DNA of 64,000 nt from Alphaproteobacteria bacterium. Its GTDB lineage: Bacteria > Pseudomonadota > Alphaproteobacteria > RF32 > CAG-239. Position numbers and translations under genes: made by a program. Shown in pieces: positions 51,866 through 56,629 of this stretch. Under the pieces are notes generated by a model. It searched no databases and had not been told where the DNA came from. It worked only from the letters and a program-made list of their open reading frames with translations. The stretch covers positions 1,046-65,045 of the forward strand of contig JAFUBQ010000007.1 of the NCBI GenBank assembly GCA_017460085.1. The letters are read 5' to 3'. Within the stretch, counting starts at the first letter, position 1. Each line of letters begins with the position of its first letter.

Positions 51866-52879
51866 TTATTGTTTAATACGTTGCGGCATTTTATTTTTAT
51901 GTCCGCCATAGCCTTGCCCGACTTTACGTCCTATAGCAGCAATTTTTGCCCCAATGCAAGTTCGACAGTGTAAAGGTGTATCATCAACACAAGCTTTACC
52001 TGGATATAATTCATAAAGCCGGCGATATTCCCCTTCTGTCACATTAGGCATCACCACATTTGCACCACCTTTAAGCGCCATAATTCTTCCTTGCGGGTGT
52101 AAGCTTTCCATGGCTGTTGTTGCCGGAATATTAATATCTTCCAATAATAGGCGCATAATTGCCATAGTACGCAAAGATAAGTGTAAATTATTACCACCGG
52201 CGTTTTTAAGCGGTGTCTGCGGATGCGGTATAAATGGACCTATACCTGCCATATCAACACCGATTTCTTTTAAATATAGCAAATCTTCGGCTATAGATTC
52301 AACACTCTGATTCGGTAAGCCGACCATAATGCCTGAACCTAGCTCATAACCAAGTTCTTTAATCATCAGCAAACATTCATGCCTATGCTGCCAGCTCATA
52401 CCGGGGTCTAAGCGGTTATACAAGTCTTTATCGGTTGTTTCAATACGCATTAAATAGCGGTCTGCGCCTGCCTCTCGAAAAGCCTTATATTCAGCATAGT
52501 CACGCTCTCCGATACTCAGCGTTAGCGCCACATCATATTTTTTAATACCTTCAATAATTTTGCACATACGCTGCTGGGAATAATACATATCTTCACCCGA
52601 CTGCAAAACCAGTGTTTTGAAGCCCATATCAATAGCTTGCTTGGCTGTATGCAACAGTTCTTCTTCACTCATATGGTAGCGCGCCAATTTCTTATTGTTT
52701 CGCTGCAAACCGCAATATTGGCAATTATTACGACAAATATTGGAAAACTCTATAAGCCCGCGCAAATGCACTTCATCGCCCACAAATTGATGCCGAACCT
52801 CATCGGCGCGGCGCAATAAATTGGCCTCATTTTCCTCGTTTTGCAGCAATTCTGTAATTTGTGCTTTGCTTAAATTCAT
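51866..52879 (-). CDS. hydE: [FeFe]-hydrogenase maturase HydE (radical SAM)
   Basis: RGLIEFSNICRNNCQYC, VLQSGED, LSIGER, GIGPFIPHPQTP, PATTA, GANVVMPN..YELYPGK. Confidence 0.92.
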   Translation of the reverse strand: MNLSKAQITELLQNEENEANLLRRADEVRHQFVGDEVHLRGLIEFSNICRNNCQYCGLQRNNKKLARYHMSEEELLHTAKQAIDMGFKTLVLQSGEDMYYSQQRMCKIIEGIKKYDVALTLSIGERDYAEYKAFREAGADRYLMRIETTDKDLYNRLDPGMSWQHRHECLLMIKELGYELGSGIMVGLPNQSVESIAEDLLYLKEIGVDMAGIGPFIPHPQTPLKNAGGNNLHLSLRTMAIMRLLLEDINIPATTAMESLHPQGRIMALKGGANVVMPNVTEGEYRRLYELYPGKACVDDTPLHCRTCIGAKIAAIGRKVGQGYGGHKNKMPQRIKQ

Positions 52880-53460: not shown

Positions 53461-53608
53461 AATTGTATGTTTTTATGTCAGTTTACATTATTATTTTTAT
53501 TTTGTCAATAAATATTTTTTTATCGTAATAGCAAAATAAAATTTCATAATTTATAAAGGACTTTAATTTAGAATGGAGTGCAATGTAAATAGAAAAAGGA
53601 GAATGTTT

Positions 53609-54982
53609 ATGCCCGTTTTAGCTGCAGTTGCCGTGCCGCATCCGCCGCTCATTTTACCGGCGGTTGGCAAAGGTGAAGAACAAAAAATTGCCCGCACCAT
53701 CAGTGCTTATCGCCAAGCAATGAAATTTCTGAGTGCATATAAGCCGGATACGGTAATTATCACCAGCCCGCACGCACCGCTTTATGCCGACTATTTTCAC
53801 GTCTCCGGCGGAGAACGCGCCACCGGCGATATGATGCGTTTTAATGCGCCGTTTACCAAATTAACCGCTGAATATGACACCGAATTTGTGCGCGAATTGG
53901 AACAACAGTGCGAAGCGCTGCATTTTCCGTGCGGCACCAAAGGCGCAGATGACGGCACACTCGACCACGCCACTTTTATCCCGCTCTATTTTTTGAACGA
54001 AGTTTATCAAAATTATAAAGTTGTGCGAATTGGTATTTCCGGTTTAAGTTTGCTGCACCACTATGATTTGGGGCGAATTATCACTGCTGTTGCCAACAAA
54101 CTTAACCGGCGAATTGCCATTATTGCCAGCGGCGATTTATCTCACAAACTGTTAGCAGAGGGGCCATATGGATTCGCTCCCGAAGGACCTTTGTATGACC
54201 GCAAAATTACCACCGCATTAAATGTGGCGGATTTTGCCACCATGCTGGAAATGCCACCGGAATTATGTGATAACGCAGCCGAATGCGGGCATCGCTCGTT
54301 TGTAATTATGGCCGGAACATTAGACGGTATGTCGGTTAAAAGTGAGCTGCTTTCATATGAAGGACCGTTTGGTGTCGGTTATGGCGTGGCAAAGTTTGAA
54401 ATTGTCGGCACCGATAAAAACCGCTTTTTCGGCGCGCAGCATTTGGCAAAATTAGCCATGTTACGAAATGCCGAAGACCCTTATGTGCATTTGGCGCGGC
54501 AAACGGTGGAACATTTTGTTAAAACCGGTAAAGCGCCGGAAACGGTTGATGCTTTGCCGGAAGAATTACTTAATCAGCGAGCCGGTGCTTTTGTTTCGCT
54601 CAAAAAACACGGGCAGCTGCGCGGCTGCATCGGCACCACACAAGCAACACAAGCCTCATTAGCACTGGAAATTGTGCAAAACGCCATTTCCGCTTGTTCG
54701 CGCGACCCGCGGTTTAAGCCGGTTCGGCCGGAAGAGTTAAGTGAATTGGAATATAGTGTTGATGTGCTTGCACCGGCTGAACCGGTGAAAGACGAAAAAG
54801 AGCTTGATGCCAAAAAATATGGTGTGATTGTGCGCAAAGACAGTCGGCAAGGTTTGTTGCTGCCTGATTTGGAAGGGGTGAATACACCAGCCGAGCAAAT
54901 TGCTATTGCCAAGCAAAAAGCCGGCATTGCGCCGGAAGAAGAAGTTGAGCTGTGGCGCTTTGAGGTGGTGCGACACAAATAA
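53609..54982 (+). CDS. amrA: AmmeMemoRadiSam system protein A fused to a LigB/Memo-like N-terminal domain
   Basis: N-terminal PHPP, SPH, DH, ASGDLSH, ECG, YEGPFGVGY; C-terminal GAFVSL..LRGCIGT, DPRF, GLLLPDL (AMMECR1 motifs). Confidence 0.88.
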   Translation: MPVLAAVAVPHPPLILPAVGKGEEQKIARTISAYRQAMKFLSAYKPDTVIITSPHAPLYADYFHVSGGERATGDMMRFNAPFTKLTAEYDTEFVRELEQQCEALHFPCGTKGADDGTLDHATFIPLYFLNEVYQNYKVVRIGISGLSLLHHYDLGRIITAVANKLNRRIAIIASGDLSHKLLAEGPYGFAPEGPLYDRKITTALNVADFATMLEMPPELCDNAAECGHRSFVIMAGTLDGMSVKSELLSYEGPFGVGYGVAKFEIVGTDKNRFFGAQHLAKLAMLRNAEDPYVHLARQTVEHFVKTGKAPETVDALPEELLNQRAGAFVSLKKHGQLRGCIGTTQATQASLALEIVQNAISACSRDPRFKPVRPEELSELEYSVDVLAPAEPVKDEKELDAKKYGVIVRKDSRQGLLLPDLEGVNTPAEQIAIAKQKAGIAPEEEVELWRFEVVRHK

Positions 54983-54984
54983 GC

Positions 54985-55012
54985 AAAAGGTGGTAACATT
55001 GCTGCTACCACC
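54985..55012 (-). terminator. Minus-strand terminator of the small-peptide gene
   Basis: GGTGGTAGCA-GCAA-TGTTACCACC (10 bp, GNRA loop, one G-U) plus TTTT on the minus strand. Confidence 0.75.
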
Positions 55013-55018
55013 CCATTC

Positions 55019-55081
55019 TTATCGTTTAATTGACAAGAAAATTCGGAGTTTCCGAATAACAATAATAATCCTTATTATCAT
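55019..55081 (-). CDS. 20-aa hydrophobic/basic peptide MIIRIIIVIRKLRIFLSIKR (candidate type I toxin)
   Basis: GAAAGG SD 7 nt upstream, terminator 6 nt downstream, minus-strand TTGACA-N17-TATAAA promoter at 55274-55246. Not in the ORF track. Confidence 0.6.
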   Translation of the reverse strand: MIIRIIIVIRKLRIFLSIKR

Positions 55082-55172
55082 TATTATACCTTTCATAATA
55101 TTGAAAGGGGAAAAACCGCGCATACATTTAAAAACACTTGACAGTGATTTAAATATGTGCTATCATCAACCC

Positions 55173-55248
55173 AGAAATTGGTTAAAGAACGGTTTAACCC
55201 CTTTCGAAGTTGAAAATATGTCCGGTGTCGTGAACCGGACTATTTTTT
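55173..55248 (+). ncRNA. Candidate ~75-nt antisense sRNA (antitoxin-like)
   Basis: TTGACA (55138)-N17-TATCAT (55161) promoter with extended TG, GGTTAAA/TTTAACC hairpin, GTCCGGT/ACCGGAC terminator plus T run. Confidence 0.65.
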
Positions 55249-55365
55249 ATATTATAATAAATTTTCTTTGTCAAACCAAAATAAAACACTAGCTTTTGCA
55301 AAATCCTCTATTGATTTTTATAAAGATGATTTGTATCATAAGCGTGAAAACGAGGAGAAAATGTA

Positions 55366-55806
55366 ATGATTACACAAAACAGATGGCAGCATATTTTAGG
55401 TGTGGCACGAAAGGCTAAAGTGCTGGCGGAAAAGTTGAAGCCGGATAATGCACAATATGCTGAAGATATGTTTTTGCTTGGGGTGATGCATGATTTAGGC
55501 TATGAATTTATGGAAAGCAACGCTTCTCATGCGGCAGTCGGCGGAAAAATATTAAAACGCAATAATTATCAATATTGGCAGGAGGTGGCTTTGCATGGCG
55601 ATGAAACAGTAGAAAATATGTCTGATGAGCTATTTATTTTAAATTGTGCCGATATGATGACAGGCCCCAACGGCGAAGATTTTACTTTTGAAGAAAGGTT
55701 GGAAGAAATTGCCGGCCGCTTCGGCAAAGATACCGCACCGTATCAAAAATGCGTGATTGAAGTGCAGAAGTTAAAAGCCGATGAAAGATATAAAAGGTTA
55801 AAATGA
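55366..55806 (+). CDS. HD-domain phosphohydrolase
   Basis: RWQHILGV, MHDLGY, HA, LH and CAD motifs; GAGGAG SD. Confidence 0.82.
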   Translation: MITQNRWQHILGVARKAKVLAEKLKPDNAQYAEDMFLLGVMHDLGYEFMESNASHAAVGGKILKRNNYQYWQEVALHGDETVENMSDELFILNCADMMTGPNGEDFTFEERLEEIAGRFGKDTAPYQKCVIEVQKLKADERYKRLK

Positions 55807-56123
55807 AATTTTGCAAATTAGAAATATTTATTCCGCAGTCACATTTAGATGTTTTGCAAAAAGCATTACAAAATGTTGATGCCGGACATATCGGAAATTA
55901 TGATTCGTGCTTATCATACAGCGAAGTTATCGGCACATGGCGGCCGCTTAAAAATGCCCAACCATATTCGGGAAAGCTAAATGAAATCAGTCAGGAAAAA
56001 GAACTTAAAGTTGAAGTGCGAGTTTCAGAGCAAAATTTGCAACAAACATTGCAAGCTATAAAGTCTGTTCACCCTTATGAAGAACCTGTCATTAACATTA
56101 TTCCTTTATTAAATGAGGTATAA
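55803..56123 (+). CDS. Nif3/YqfO PII-like insert-domain protein
   Basis: KLEIFIP, AGHIGNYDSC, GTWRP, EVRV, HPYEEP. Confidence 0.85.
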   Translation: MKFCKLEIFIPQSHLDVLQKALQNVDAGHIGNYDSCLSYSEVIGTWRPLKNAQPYSGKLNEISQEKELKVEVRVSEQNLQQTLQAIKSVHPYEEPVINIIPLLNEV

Positions 56124-56125
56124 AA

Positions 56126-56629
56126 ATGCCAACCTATTTAATCATCGGCAATATTTTTTCATTATTATCGGCAATTTGCATTGCGGTTTCAGTGGTTAAA
56201 AAGAGCAAAAAATCTTTAATCGGGTGGCAAATTTTTGATGTGATATTTTGCATATTATCAAATATTGCTCTTTACACATATGCGGCGCTAACCACTAATT
56301 TTATTTCCTTAATCCGTAATATTTTGGCCTATAACAATAAATTAAGCAAAAACATGACATGGTTTTTATTGATTTTATGCATCGTTGCCGGTTTATGGGC
56401 TAACAATCGCGGTATTATCGGTCTGTTTCCCGTTATAGCTTCCGCCGAATATACCCTTCTGATGTATATTACCAAAAATGAACAACAAATGCGCTGGGCG
56501 CTGATGATAAATTTGTTTTTATGGCTCATTCACGATTTTTATGTGCAAGCATATCCCTCTGCTATTACTGATTTAGCGTTAGGTATTTGGATTTTCGTGC
56601 AAATCTATTGCAATAAAAAGAAGAGTTAG
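56126..56629 (+). CDS. YgjV-like inner membrane protein
   Basis: Multiple TM helices; ISLIRN, LFPVIAS, LWLIHD pattern. Confidence 0.65.
   Translation: MPTYLIIGNIFSLLSAICIAVSVVKKSKKSLIGWQIFDVIFCILSNIALYTYAALTTNFISLIRNILAYNNKLSKNMTWFLLILCIVAGLWANNRGIIGLFPVIASAEYTLLMYITKNEQQMRWALMINLFLWLIHDFYVQAYPSAITDLALGIWIFVQIYCNKKKS

Follow-up and report, generated by a model that had tools for sequence, protein, structure and literature searches.

Within the 64,000-nt stretch of DNA analysed here (the window), 290 bases at positions 54985–55274 raise the question of whether so small an intergenic space harbours a gene of its own and, if so, of which kind. The original prediction described a type I toxin-antitoxin-like module, and direct reading of the sequence recovers all of the elements that it listed, each in its place. 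The 290 bases represent one copy of a repeated mini-gene cassette, which is found in uncultured gut Alphaproteobacteria and in their phages. The structural parts of the type I interpretation are backed by comparative data, as the ORF, the promoters, the shared hairpin, the terminator and the pairings recur among the copies. We estimate at roughly 60% the probability that the cassette, with its candidate toxin peptide and candidate antitoxin sRNA, constitutes a new type I toxin-antitoxin-like family, previously undescribed and restricted to a single bacterial family.

Genetic Organization of the Cassette

The putative peptide mRNA is encoded on the minus strand. Its promoter (55246–55274), present as predicted, is composed of TTGACA (55274–55269), a 17-nt spacer and TATAAA (55251–55246), read directly from the sequence, and this form is found family-wide. 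Among the 45 copies with at least 95 nt of upstream DNA, the −10 box is TATAAA in 31, the spacer measures 17 nt in 42, and the −35 box is TTGACA in 18 and a one-off variant in most others. The promoter columns are conserved in alignment A1. A consensus promoter scan of 2.5 kb does not list this promoter, because its −10 box ends in A and the conserved final T is missing. The A-rich stretch at this −10 box is also the complement of the U-run of the sRNA terminator.

A GC-rich hairpin at 55220–55240, found on both strands by the scan, would act both as the 5'-terminal hairpin of the mRNA and as the intrinsic terminator of the sRNA. The 5' hairpin is predicted in 44 of the 45 copies, and its stem occurs in variants in which the pairing is kept (GTCCGG/CCGGAC, TGTCGG/CCGACA, TGCCGA/TCGGCA and GTCGGC/GCCGAC). 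At the opposite end, the predicted intrinsic terminator of the mRNA (54975–55014, minus strand) is made of a stem-loop (55014–54987) with a 10-bp core stem, a GCAA loop and a T-rich tail; the scan counts 12 pairs in the stem. This agrees with the GNRA terminator and T run proposed originally. Of the 60 copies whose downstream DNA is long enough, 53 have a hairpin and a T-run behind the stop codon, and the sequence of the hairpin stem varies among copies. In total, 10 terminator-like sites are present in the 2.5 kb, versus 3.0 ± 1.6 in shuffled sequences. A 261-nt minus-strand RNA reaches a folding energy of −96 kcal/mol (z = −9.69), and none of 200 shuffles is as stable. The mRNA, coding for the candidate toxin peptide, would be ~260 nt long and run from about 55240 to 54980.

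The plus strand carries the near-consensus promoter that had been predicted at 55138–55166: TTGACA, 17 nt and TATCAT, preceded by the TG of an extended −10. With 11 of 12 matches, this promoter ranks first among the sites of the 2.5-kb scan. Its GTCAA is near-invariant in alignment A3 (31 model-found copies). Over 74 copies the −10 box is TATCTT in 51 and the spacer 17 nt in all, values that the collection pattern partly forced. The corresponding terminator is the hairpin at 55220–55240, followed on the plus strand by TATTTTTTAT. Together, promoter and terminator predict an antisense sRNA of ~76 nt (55173–55248), whose ends we infer from the scan; the original prediction had given ~75 nt. This sRNA is predicted to hold two hairpins and is complementary to mRNA nucleotides 1 to ~68, outside the ORF. 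The covered part includes the 5' hairpin, the 5' arm of a long-range helix and a local stem-loop, so that the 5' arm, or activator segment, lies wholly inside it, as had been claimed. A 79-nt plus-strand RNA has a folding energy of −24.9 kcal/mol (z = −3.95), again with none of 200 shuffles as stable. Convergent with the mRNA, strongly promoted and a perfect complement of its first ~68 nt, this RNA is the candidate antitoxin.

Distribution and Genomic Context

Paralogous cassettes, for which the original prediction had suggested a search, exist. Searching 30 genomes of the genus with a covariance model of the leader gave 42 copies, distributed over 9 of them. At the family level, matches are found in 37 of 121 genomes and 12 of 23 genera, with up to 16 copies per genome, and none in 150 other genera of the class. 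Just one copy is present in the genome from which the window derives. The cassette was also found in 62 stretches of species-representative genomes, most of which bear titles of uncultured Alphaproteobacteria from gut or rumen, and in 36 metagenome stretches, where the conserved ORF is present at 33 of 38 matches. A TARA ocean contig that fits the search pattern was rejected, as it lacks the cassette features. The cassette is often tandem, as seen from the tandem pairs present.

The cassette is flanked by unrelated housekeeping genes, and its intergenic sites are mutually unrelated. In five phage records it is located among neck, head, tail-fibre, endolysin and anti-repressor genes, that is, within structural and lysis modules. 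The plasmid search gave no match, and the sole match among GenBank phages, 33 AT-rich nt of Bacillus phage G, is attributed to chance. Occurrence in one family, at up to 16 copies per genome and in phages, corresponds to the lineage-restricted, multi-copy or tandem distribution over chromosomal loci, and sometimes over mobile elements, that characterizes type I systems.

In the window, the plus-strand promoter at 55138 and the terminator at 55220–55240 are situated upstream of an HD-domain gene (at 55366) and co-directional with it, so they might be taken for its regulatory leader or attenuator. This explanation is already contradicted by the varied contexts and is extremely unlikely: the cassette adjoins many unrelated genes, also in phages, and the HD-domain orthologues of seven relatives are preceded by other DNA, with no model match in those genomes. 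Orthologues of the HD-domain gene are present in 13 of 29 other genomes of the genus, with a different upstream neighbour. The insertion boundaries of the cassette are unreadable from these orthologues, the closest of which (90% identity) shares no upstream DNA.

The Encoded Peptide

The ORF is located at 55019–55081 on the minus strand, as predicted, with its ATG at 55081. Its 20 codons and stop encode MIIRIIIVIRKLRIFLSIKR, a class A peptide with a net charge of +6. Part of the window ORF is a self-complementary ATA/ATT-rich stretch, predicted to fold on itself. With a length far within the limit of ~60 aa and a promoter and terminator of its own, this 20-aa ORF has the form expected of a type I gene.

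The original prediction had named lack of conservation at homologous loci as a point that would count against it. An SD-preceded ORF of 20–24 codons is conserved in 61 of 75 distinct copies, in two peptide classes. Among class B copies, differences per site at codon positions 1, 2 and 3 amount to 0.279, 0.113 and 0.391, respectively, with a pN/pS of 0.37. Class A gives a pN/pS of 0.56–0.63, and its codon statistics are only weakly coding-like. Arg/Lys positions alternate among CGG, CGC, AGG, AGA and AAA. No more than 2 of 64 copies have an antisense frame that stays open throughout the core, and a 130-aa plus-strand frame (54900–55292) is accordingly regarded as a chance occurrence.

These data bear on whether the 20-codon frame is a gene at all, or a by-product of AT-rich palindromes in a non-coding element. 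In that case the element would yield the plus-strand sRNA as its sole functional product, or would represent a structured repeat between genes. The self-complementary stretch of the window ORF and the class A pN/pS are in line with this, as are six copies in which the sRNA and leader part is retained and is followed by another sequence that does not code. Such an origin is nevertheless very improbable, since start, stop, length and spaced SD are kept in the 61 copies across two sequence-distinct peptide classes, conservation in class B is highest at codon position 2 and lowest at position 3, and Arg codons swap between the CGN and AGR families. Furthermore, a dedicated promoter and terminator frame the ORF, and other frames are not kept open. 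The ~200-nt sequence that replaces the ORF in some copies has no Rfam match, and it occurs once per genome, so it is no dispersed repeat and a transposon origin was rejected.

The peptides of both classes are hydrophobic, with a GRAVY of 1.08 for class A and 2.01 for class B. Class A has a hydrophobic moment of 1.16 at 170 degrees versus 0.29 at 100 degrees, a beta-type periodicity that fits the earlier description of the peptide as beta-hairpin-like. Class A peptides, including that of the window, carry a charge of +5 to +7, and their uncharged runs do not exceed 5–6 residues. They are thus unlike the usual transmembrane type I toxin and atypically cationic. The candidate toxin would be this 20-residue peptide, strongly cationic and hydrophobic, and its synthesis would harm the cell.

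Since class A has no continuous hydrophobic span and a beta-type periodicity, the same anatomy might instead serve a small protein, cationic or membrane-associated, whose role is physiological or linked to phages. It could, for example, modulate a membrane protein or act in superinfection or in the timing of lysis, and the cis-antisense RNA and the switch would tune its synthesis. The single copy in the window's genome and the copies that are phage morons beside lysis and structural genes also point in this direction. We regard a harmless product as unlikely. As far as the available part of T1TAdb describes type I systems, they combine a tiny hydrophobic or cationic ORF, SD sequestration and a strong, fully complementary antisense RNA, and they too are multi-copy and tandem, lineage-restricted and scattered over intergenic and phage sites. 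Decayed copies, in which the start or stop is lost or the ORF is replaced with the sRNA part kept, likewise fit a gene that is costly to keep.

Predicted Structure of the Leader RNA

The type I interpretation assigns the control of peptide synthesis to the leader of the mRNA, in which four elements can be distinguished on the minus strand. The SD, GAAAGG (55089–55094), is placed 7 nt 5' of the ATG. The anti-SD (55103–55118; CGGTTT..CCCCTTTC) can be the partner of either the SD or the 5' arm of a long-range helix, of which it forms the 3' arm. This 5' arm (55190–55205) is an SD mimic, GAAAGGGG..AAACCG, able to capture the anti-SD. The fourth element is a local stem-loop, GGTTAAA/TTTAACC (55180–55199), which predicted folds of both RNAs contain: in the mRNA it is a rival of the long-range helix, and on the other strand it forms the 5' stem-loop of the sRNA. 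Its GTTAAAC and TTAAC are nearly invariant and its loop is variable.

The hairpin said to lock the SD, CCTTTCA (55108–55102) with TGAAAGG (55095–55089), is located where it had been predicted and is part of the minimum free energy (MFE) structure. Of 61 copies, 49 have at least three SD-core nucleotides paired, and 47 have them paired to the anti-SD arm. Strict SD-core pairing is absent from 14 of 61 copies, mostly class B; several of the 14 have the 3' arm paired to GUGAAAG immediately 5' of the AUG instead. Sequestration of the SD by intramolecular structure in the primary mRNA, as seen in these predicted folds, is a further trait of type I systems.

For the alternative pairing of the leader segment with the anti-SD, 14 of 16 positions had been claimed. 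RNAduplex predicts 15 pairs between GAAAGGGGTTAAACCG (55205–55190) and CGGTTTTTCCCCTTTC (55118–55103), with a 2x2 internal loop and −25.6 kcal/mol, and compensatory change is abundant across copies. Of the two states, the long-range helix has the more favourable predicted energy, with an RNAduplex mean over 61 copies of −21.5 kcal/mol, versus −11.0 kcal/mol for the other. In the window mRNA, the SD hairpin appears in the MFE structure and the long-range helix in the centroid; therefore, the energies of the two states differ little.

From a plain MAFFT alignment, RNAalifold recovered nothing but the local stem-loop (9 pairs) and missed the long-range helix, because the two arm classes are misaligned there. 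The helix was therefore scored per copy and on a model-guided alignment. On this alignment A5, which was fitted to the same helix, 95.7% of 909 cells are paired versus 84.5% in shuffles, and 96 cells are compensatory versus 23.6. Both-side changes occur in 9 of 12 pairs, and none of 500 shuffles reaches the values of the helix. With the 3' partner slid by one column, 70–72% are paired.

These results support an RNA switch built from SD, anti-SD and SD mimic, in which translation would be set by three mutually complementary segments. In the OFF state, the anti-SD (55118–55103) would be on the SD just downstream, in a local hairpin. In the ON state, it would be engaged by the SD-mimicking segment ~85 nt upstream (55205–55190), leaving the SD free. 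The local hairpins would form first during transcription, so the nascent mRNA would be silent; upon refolding into the more stable long-range form it would become translatable, making nuclease processing unnecessary. If present, the sRNA would pair with the 5' region, starting from the conserved stem-loop, and remove the SD mimic, so the SD would stay locked. The long sRNA-mRNA duplex is probably also a substrate of RNase III. When the sRNA-covered nucleotides are blocked, the predicted accessibility of the RBS is lower in 47 of 54 copies, counts that are not independent as the copies are related. At equilibrium folding the predicted effect is modest, with mean values of 0.41 unblocked and 0.30 blocked for class A, and of 0.51 and 0.455, respectively, for class B.

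This modest change, together with the SD-like nature of the 5' arm itself (GAAAGGGG), is also what one might see in a type I system controlled at another step. The 5' arm would then be a ribosome standby site blocked by the sRNA, or the sRNA would act mainly through duplex cleavage and mRNA decay, and the long-range helix would serve mRNA stability or compaction rather than SD release. Standby sites and RNase III cleavage are both documented in tisB/IstR-1, according to the accessible text of PMC13000454. Control of this kind seems decidedly unlikely here. Besides its covariation with the 5' arm and its pairing with the SD in those 47 copies, the 3' arm is a complement of the SD as well as of the 5' arm, and a pure standby site has no need of such three-way complementarity.

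Comparison with Known Type I Systems

Searches of Rfam, Pfam and NCBIfam agree with the earlier statement that the peptide could not be assigned to a known toxin family. Rfam gave only chance-level matches on 54000–56500 (E of at least 2), and the identities YenS, psRNA6 and snoRNA were rejected, their scores being far below the gathering scores. At the gathering threshold, six other copies gave only a neighbouring 6S RNA. Five peptides had no match in Pfam and NCBIfam at E up to 10, searches in which 20-aa queries give profiles little power. Models of Ldr/Rdl, Ibs/Sib, TisB/IstR, ShoB/OhsC, Fst/RNAII, TxpA/RatA and the other families modelled there gave no Rfam or Pfam match, and HOK_GEF and the Sok RNA family none in Pfam, NCBIfam and Rfam. 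The cassette is type I-like in its build and, judged from these sequence searches, unrelated to any known type I system.

The genetic layout is that of Hok/Sok and Ldr/Rdl, which also have multiple chromosomal copies. In hok, a 5' element opens a sequestered SD. The toxins of Hok/Sok and of Ldr/Rdl comprise ~50 and 35 residues, respectively, and the cassette peptides 20–24. On inspection of its sequence, the cassette differs from Hok/Sok in having neither an overlapping leader ORF such as mok nor 5'-3' end pairing, and from both systems in that its model needs no 3' processing. Ibs/Sib shares the very short peptide (Ibs has ~18–19 aa) and the repeated chromosomal copies. Going by the available T1TAdb record, Sib spans the whole ibs ORF, whereas the cassette sRNA misses its ORF. 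In addition, class A is highly cationic and Ibs purely hydrophobic.

The AapA mRNA has its SD locked by long-distance pairing and becomes active upon 3' processing. The long-range helix of the cassette is, in contrast, the state predicted to free the SD. The accessible portion of PMC6733600 reports that, in AapA/IsoA, local anti-SD hairpins sequester the SD co-transcriptionally, in addition to a long-distance interaction in the mRNA. The likeness to the cassette lies in the SD sequestration, the long-distance pairing, the antisense RNA inside the mRNA span and the multi-copy loci. IsoA overlaps the ORF in the T1TAdb record available, which the cassette sRNA does not, and there is no sequence match.

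The regulatory logic appears closest to that of timP/TimR. In the part of PMC13000454 accessible to us, a long-range interaction in timP rivals an SD-sequestering stem-loop, which TimR, pairing in the 5' UTR, keeps closed. The primary mRNA is described there as a purely structural switch for which nuclease processing is unnecessary. It was as late as 2026 that experiments on timP established this processing-independent principle. Likewise, an SD-freeing long-range pairing that competes with an SD stem-loop, and an sRNA in the 5' UTR, are predicted for the cassette. As far as that text goes, timP needs a pseudoknot between 5' UTR stem-loops, whereas non-systematic inspection identified none in the cassette. 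In the cassette, the activating arm mimics an SD, and a cis-antisense RNA with full complementarity covers it. The balance of the states also differs, the long-range state being the weaker one in timP (−7 versus −11 kcal/mol in the same text) and the stronger one in the cassette. Rfam, Pfam and NCBIfam gave no sequence match to timP/TimR, as far as these libraries model that system.

RNA-Library Contigs

Two metatranscriptome contigs of 220–221 nt cover just the cassette (55021–55230 and 55011–55229); they carry no strand information. Their depth is 12 and 3.1, compared to 1.3–3.6 for the neighbouring pieces, and one of them ends in adapter sequence at 55230. The contigs have a C>T change at 55071, by which codon 4 turns from AGG to AAG, the same Arg/Lys alternation as across the family. 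A third contig (54835–55046) extends from the upstream gene to within the ORF, and this RNA library may contain DNA. Only two RNA runs contain part of the stretch (shares of 0.12 and 0.09), both from one sample and study, and they provide weak evidence for expression of the cassette; parts of the region that no contig covers are uninformative.

Biological Significance

A wider interpretation, which we put forward only tentatively and think somewhat doubtful, is that the copies make up a new type I superfamily of gut and rumen Alphaproteobacteria and their phages, in which a portable regulatory chassis carries different payloads. This chassis would consist of the promoter, the shared bidirectional hairpin, the SD mimic, the cis-antisense sRNA and the anti-SD, and would work as a processing-free three-way RNA switch. 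One payload would be the peptide of 20–21 residues with a charge of +5 to +7 and beta-strand periodicity, a toxin type that would be without precedent among type I systems. The second would be an amphipathic-helix peptide of 23–24 residues, and the third a conserved non-coding sequence of ~200 nt. If this is true, the copies that keep the sRNA and have no ORF could protect against phage-borne copies, as anti-addiction or immunity modules.

Most known type I systems come from Enterobacteria, Firmicutes, and Helicobacter or Campylobacter. The part of T1TAdb available gives 24 type I families, and the word Alphaproteobacteria is absent from the type I survey literature searched. The family described here would extend this kind of system to an uncultured, host-associated alphaproteobacterial lineage and its phages, and the very short cationic peptide of class A would broaden the known type I toxin peptides. 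Its more than 100 natural copies represent a ready compensatory-mutation experiment for a processing-independent switch of SD, anti-SD and SD mimic. The cassette can also serve as an annotation marker in genomes where 20-codon genes and sRNAs go uncalled.

Organization of the window copy

The cassette occupies a gap (54983-55365) between two plus-strand genes, an AMMECR1/LigB-Memo fusion gene upstream (53573-54982) and a small HD-domain gene downstream (55366-55806). A radical SAM gene (51866-52879, minus strand) is found near the fused gene. Radical SAM, Memo and AMMECR1 make up the gene set of the AmmeMemoRadiSam system, to which the genes here putatively belong, two of its members forming a single gene in the window.

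Reading both strands located all elements of the cassette that had been listed in the original prediction, each at the position given there. The minus strand carries an mRNA promoter (TTGACA-17-TATAAA, 55274-55246), the Shine-Dalgarno (SD) sequence GAAAGG (55094-55089) within a CCTTTCA/TGAAAGG hairpin, an ORF of 20 codons (55081-55019) and a terminator with a GCAA loop (55014-54987). An extra in-frame ATG within the SD region (55096-55081) would give a 25-residue form; as it is not conserved in the other copies, the ATG at 55081 was taken as the start. On the plus strand, the sRNA promoter (TTGACA-17-TATCAT with an extended -10 TG, 55138-55166) matches at 11 of 12 positions, the best in a 2.5-kb scan, which also identified a hairpin followed by a T-run (55220-55240). 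Compared with shuffled sequences, the minus-strand RNA has far more structure (z = -9.69, none of 200 as stable), as does the plus-strand RNA of 79 nt (z = -3.95).

These signals recur in other copies. The mRNA -10 box reads TATAAA in 31 of 45 copies, with a 17-nt spacer in 42 and a predicted 5' hairpin in 44; a hairpin and T-run follow the stop codon in 53 of 60. The U-run of the sRNA terminator is complementary to the A-run at the mRNA -10 box, which may be why the box ends in A. GTCAA, the complement of the sRNA promoter -35, is near-invariant in the 31 copies found by covariance model. For the full set of 74 copies, the promoter counts are in part a consequence of the pattern used to collect them. 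The local hairpin has a variable loop and an almost invariant stem, GTTAAAC/GTTTAAC, which serves at once in the hairpins of the mRNA and of the sRNA and in the long-range helix.

Conservation and properties of the peptide

Pooling yielded 99 copies, 75 of them distinct. Conservation of the ORF, proposed earlier as a check, is evident: an SD-preceded ORF of 20-24 codons is kept at the same place in 61 of the 75. Two classes were distinguished, two class B copies and one class A copy being assigned by eye after the automatic sort. Class A (n = 41), which includes the window copy, has 20-21 residues; a run of Ile/Leu/Val at the N terminus is followed by the core I-[RK]-K-x-[RK]-I-[FY], and the end is basic. 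Class B (n = 20) has 23-24 residues, with K-V-L-x-I as its core and a hydrophobic stretch, interspersed with Lys, at the C terminus.

The substitutions in class B show the classic coding pattern, with 0.279, 0.113 and 0.391 differences per site at codon positions 1, 2 and 3 and a pN/pS of 0.37. The signal is weaker in class A (pN/pS 0.56-0.63), where the basic positions swap among CGG, CGC, AGG, AGA and AAA. The antisense frame across the core is open in only two of 64 copies. Judged from its sequence, the ORF is a real gene. Within the window ORF, a perfect 7-bp hairpin (ATTCGGA AAC TCCGAAT, 55041-55057) precedes a T-run and spans the Ile-Arg-Lys-x-Arg-Ile codons; it is kept in the closest subclass and absent from other class A copies and from class B.

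Class A peptides carry a charge of +5 to +7, with uncharged runs of at most 5-6 residues. The description of the window peptide as beta-hairpin-like agrees with a class A hydrophobic moment of 1.16 at beta-strand against 0.29 at helical periodicity. Class B is reversed (0.32 against 1.13) and more hydrophobic. As already noted for the window peptide, no known toxin family can be assigned: five representative peptides gave no match in Pfam and NCBIfam at E-values up to 10, although such short queries have little power.

The remaining 14 distinct copies comprise three cut by contig or unit ends, six with a replaced ORF, one degenerate, one with its start codon lost, one with its stop lost and an Arg-to-Trp change, one divergent 17-codon frame and one unrelated. 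Two decaying copies are L033 (genome and contig G013:C1) and L096. In one, loss of the stop gives a 40-codon frame with Trp at the conserved Arg-10 position; in the other, ATA replaces the start codon.

The six copies with a replaced ORF, on stretches L026 (G013:C44), L030 (G011:C10), L061 and L066, and L044 (G045:C13) and L071, retain the part with promoter, leader and sRNA. Beginning near the start codon, a conserved, apparently non-coding sequence of ~200 nt stands in place of the peptide ORF. It exists in two versions, one after class-A-type and the other after class-B-type leaders. A dispersed repeat is ruled out by its single occurrence per genome, and it has no match in Rfam. Possible roles for the replacement are that of a third payload or of an antitoxin without its toxin. 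Downstream of the L030 copy, a 221-aa protein (L030 2313-2978) without a Pfam match at 1e-5 shows, by eye, an N-terminal leader like that of prepilins (type IV pilin or pseudopilin) and a hydrophobic segment.

A proposed switch in the leader and its conservation

The upstream leader segment had been proposed to capture the anti-SD, and the family supports this. Duplex prediction for each copy pairs this 5' arm (55205-55190 in the window) with the anti-SD or 3' arm (55118-55103) in 30 of 30 copies, at -11.7 to -25.8 kcal/mol. Several classes of arms are each internally complementary, for instance GAAAGGGG with CCCCTTTC, GAACAAAG with CTTTGTTC, and CAAGAGG with CCTCTTG. A model built from eight window-like copies, with the long-range helix alone specified, aligned 101 matches (77 distinct). 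In this alignment, which was fitted to the helix that it scores and is biased in its favor, standard pairs fill 95.7% of 909 cells against 84.5% in shuffles, both sides change in nine of the 12 pairs, and 96 cells are compensatory against 23.6. None of 500 shuffles reached the observed values, and shifting the partner by one column lowers pairing to 70-72%. The class-wise complementarity of the arms is visible in plain MAFFT alignments too.

The proposed locking of the SD also recurs: in 47 of 61 copies, the 3' arm is predicted to pair with the core of the SD, and in several of the others, mostly class B, with GUGAAAG right before the AUG. As the same 3' arm pairs with the 5' arm and with the SD, the 5' arm is an SD mimic, and the two pairings are mutually exclusive. 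In the window mRNA, the minimum-energy fold holds the SD hairpin and the centroid fold the long-range helix, indicating two states close in energy.

The predicted sRNA is complementary to mRNA nt 1 to ~68, and thus antisense to the entire 5' arm, the proposed activator, as first described. Barring the sRNA-covered nucleotides from pairing lowers predicted accessibility of the ribosome-binding site in 47 of 54 copies; the drop is modest, from 0.41 to 0.30 in class A and from 0.51 to 0.455 in class B.

Possible transcript traces

Only two RNA runs, bovine-gut metatranscriptomes from one sample of one study, cover part of the window. Contigs of 220-221 nt span 55021-55230 (depth 12, with adapter sequence at the end) and 55011-55229 (depth 3.1), next to pieces of depth 1.3-3.6; another contig bridges the upstream gene and the ORF. 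The limits near the predicted mRNA body are only a hint, the contigs being strandless and DNA possibly being present in the library. Their variants respect the cassette model: C>T at 55071 converts the AGG of codon 4 into AAG, and with A>C at 55165 the -10 box reads TATCCT, as it does in five other copies.

Spread and genomic context

Paralogous cassettes, sought in relatives, were found in multiple and tandem copies. By BLAST, the 1.59-Mb genome of the window holds one copy and some relatives several, with matches in seven of 40 genomes and in none of 16 outside the genus. R1, a covariance model of the leader, gave 42 matches in nine of 30 genomes of the genus. Across the family, it matched 37 of 121 genomes in 12 of 23 genera, with up to 16 copies per genome; among other genera of the class, under stricter filters, it matched none of 150.

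A degenerate DNA pattern, which recovered 25 of the 30 copies known by then, retrieved 62 stretches from species-representative genomes, seven from IMG/VR viral contigs and 36 from metagenomes, a good number of them under human-gut titles. By title, most of the 62 genome records belong to uncultured Alphaproteobacteria of the human, mouse, rabbit or ruminant gut. Several bins (among L047-L108), all following one naming scheme, bear the names Bacteroidaceae, Eubacteriales, [Ruminococcus] gnavus or Lachnospiraceae. These names are probably mis-assigned, since each bin is rich in copies of an element that was otherwise encountered in Alphaproteobacteria MAGs alone.

Tandem pairs are common, spaced by ~300-350 nt. 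At 28 loci, the neighbors are housekeeping genes with no relation to one another, for example those for pyruvate kinase, DXP synthase, RecG, adenylate kinase, MetRS and ZapA. One copy lies ~140 nt from a 6S RNA gene (L019, G013:C8, 1810-1966; 58.1 bits, above the gathering score).

Five phage or prophage records have the cassette among neck, head, tail-fiber, endolysin and anti-repressor genes. In the IMG/VR contigs (L124-L135), it is a moron carried by phages or prophages, of which two have genomes with a completeness rating of 100%; it is located between neck/tail-completion and head genes or adjoining the endolysin, tail-fiber or anti-repressor gene. Four of these phage contigs carry a peptide variant that ranks first among metagenome contigs as well (17 of 38 matches). 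Plasmids gave no match, and GenBank phages a chance match only.

Proposed mechanism and relation to known systems

During transcription, the local hairpins would form first, leaving the nascent mRNA untranslated. The mRNA could then refold into the long-range form, freeing the SD; the long-range helix is predicted to be far stronger, with a mean of -21.5 kcal/mol, a duplex figure that ignores the cost of loop closure, against -11.0 for the SD hairpin segment. Abundant sRNA would enter via the conserved stem-loop and remove the SD mimic, so that the SD remains locked, and the 68-bp sRNA:mRNA duplex would be a substrate for RNase III. If the sRNA gene were lost or no longer transcribed, the peptide could be made.

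According to T1TAdb, Hok/Sok and Ldr/Rdl have the same layout: their antisense RNAs likewise fall inside the span of the mRNA and 5' to the ORF. The closest logic is that of timP/TimR, where a long-range interaction opposes an SD-sequestering stem-loop without processing, and the TimR sRNA keeps the timP mRNA in its closed form (PMC13000454). The narrow, lineage-specific spread of the cassette resembles that described as typical of type I systems in a distribution survey (PMC5367252). The word "Alphaproteobacteria" is absent from that survey and from the T1TAdb paper. Among the papers listed by a full-text literature search, none describes a type I toxin-antitoxin system of this sort in Alphaproteobacteria; candidates might be present in the organism and candidate lists that supplement T1TAdb and Fozo et al. 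2010. The cassette has no sequence or model match to any known family in Rfam, Pfam or NCBIfam.

Anatomy, conservation and covariation support the reading as a type I module, of which toxicity, the sRNA effect and the transcript ends remain predictions. With its candidate toxin and predicted sRNA, the cassette is best classed with the type I toxin-antitoxin kind, as a new family that is not homologous to the known ones and has a structural switch like that of timP.
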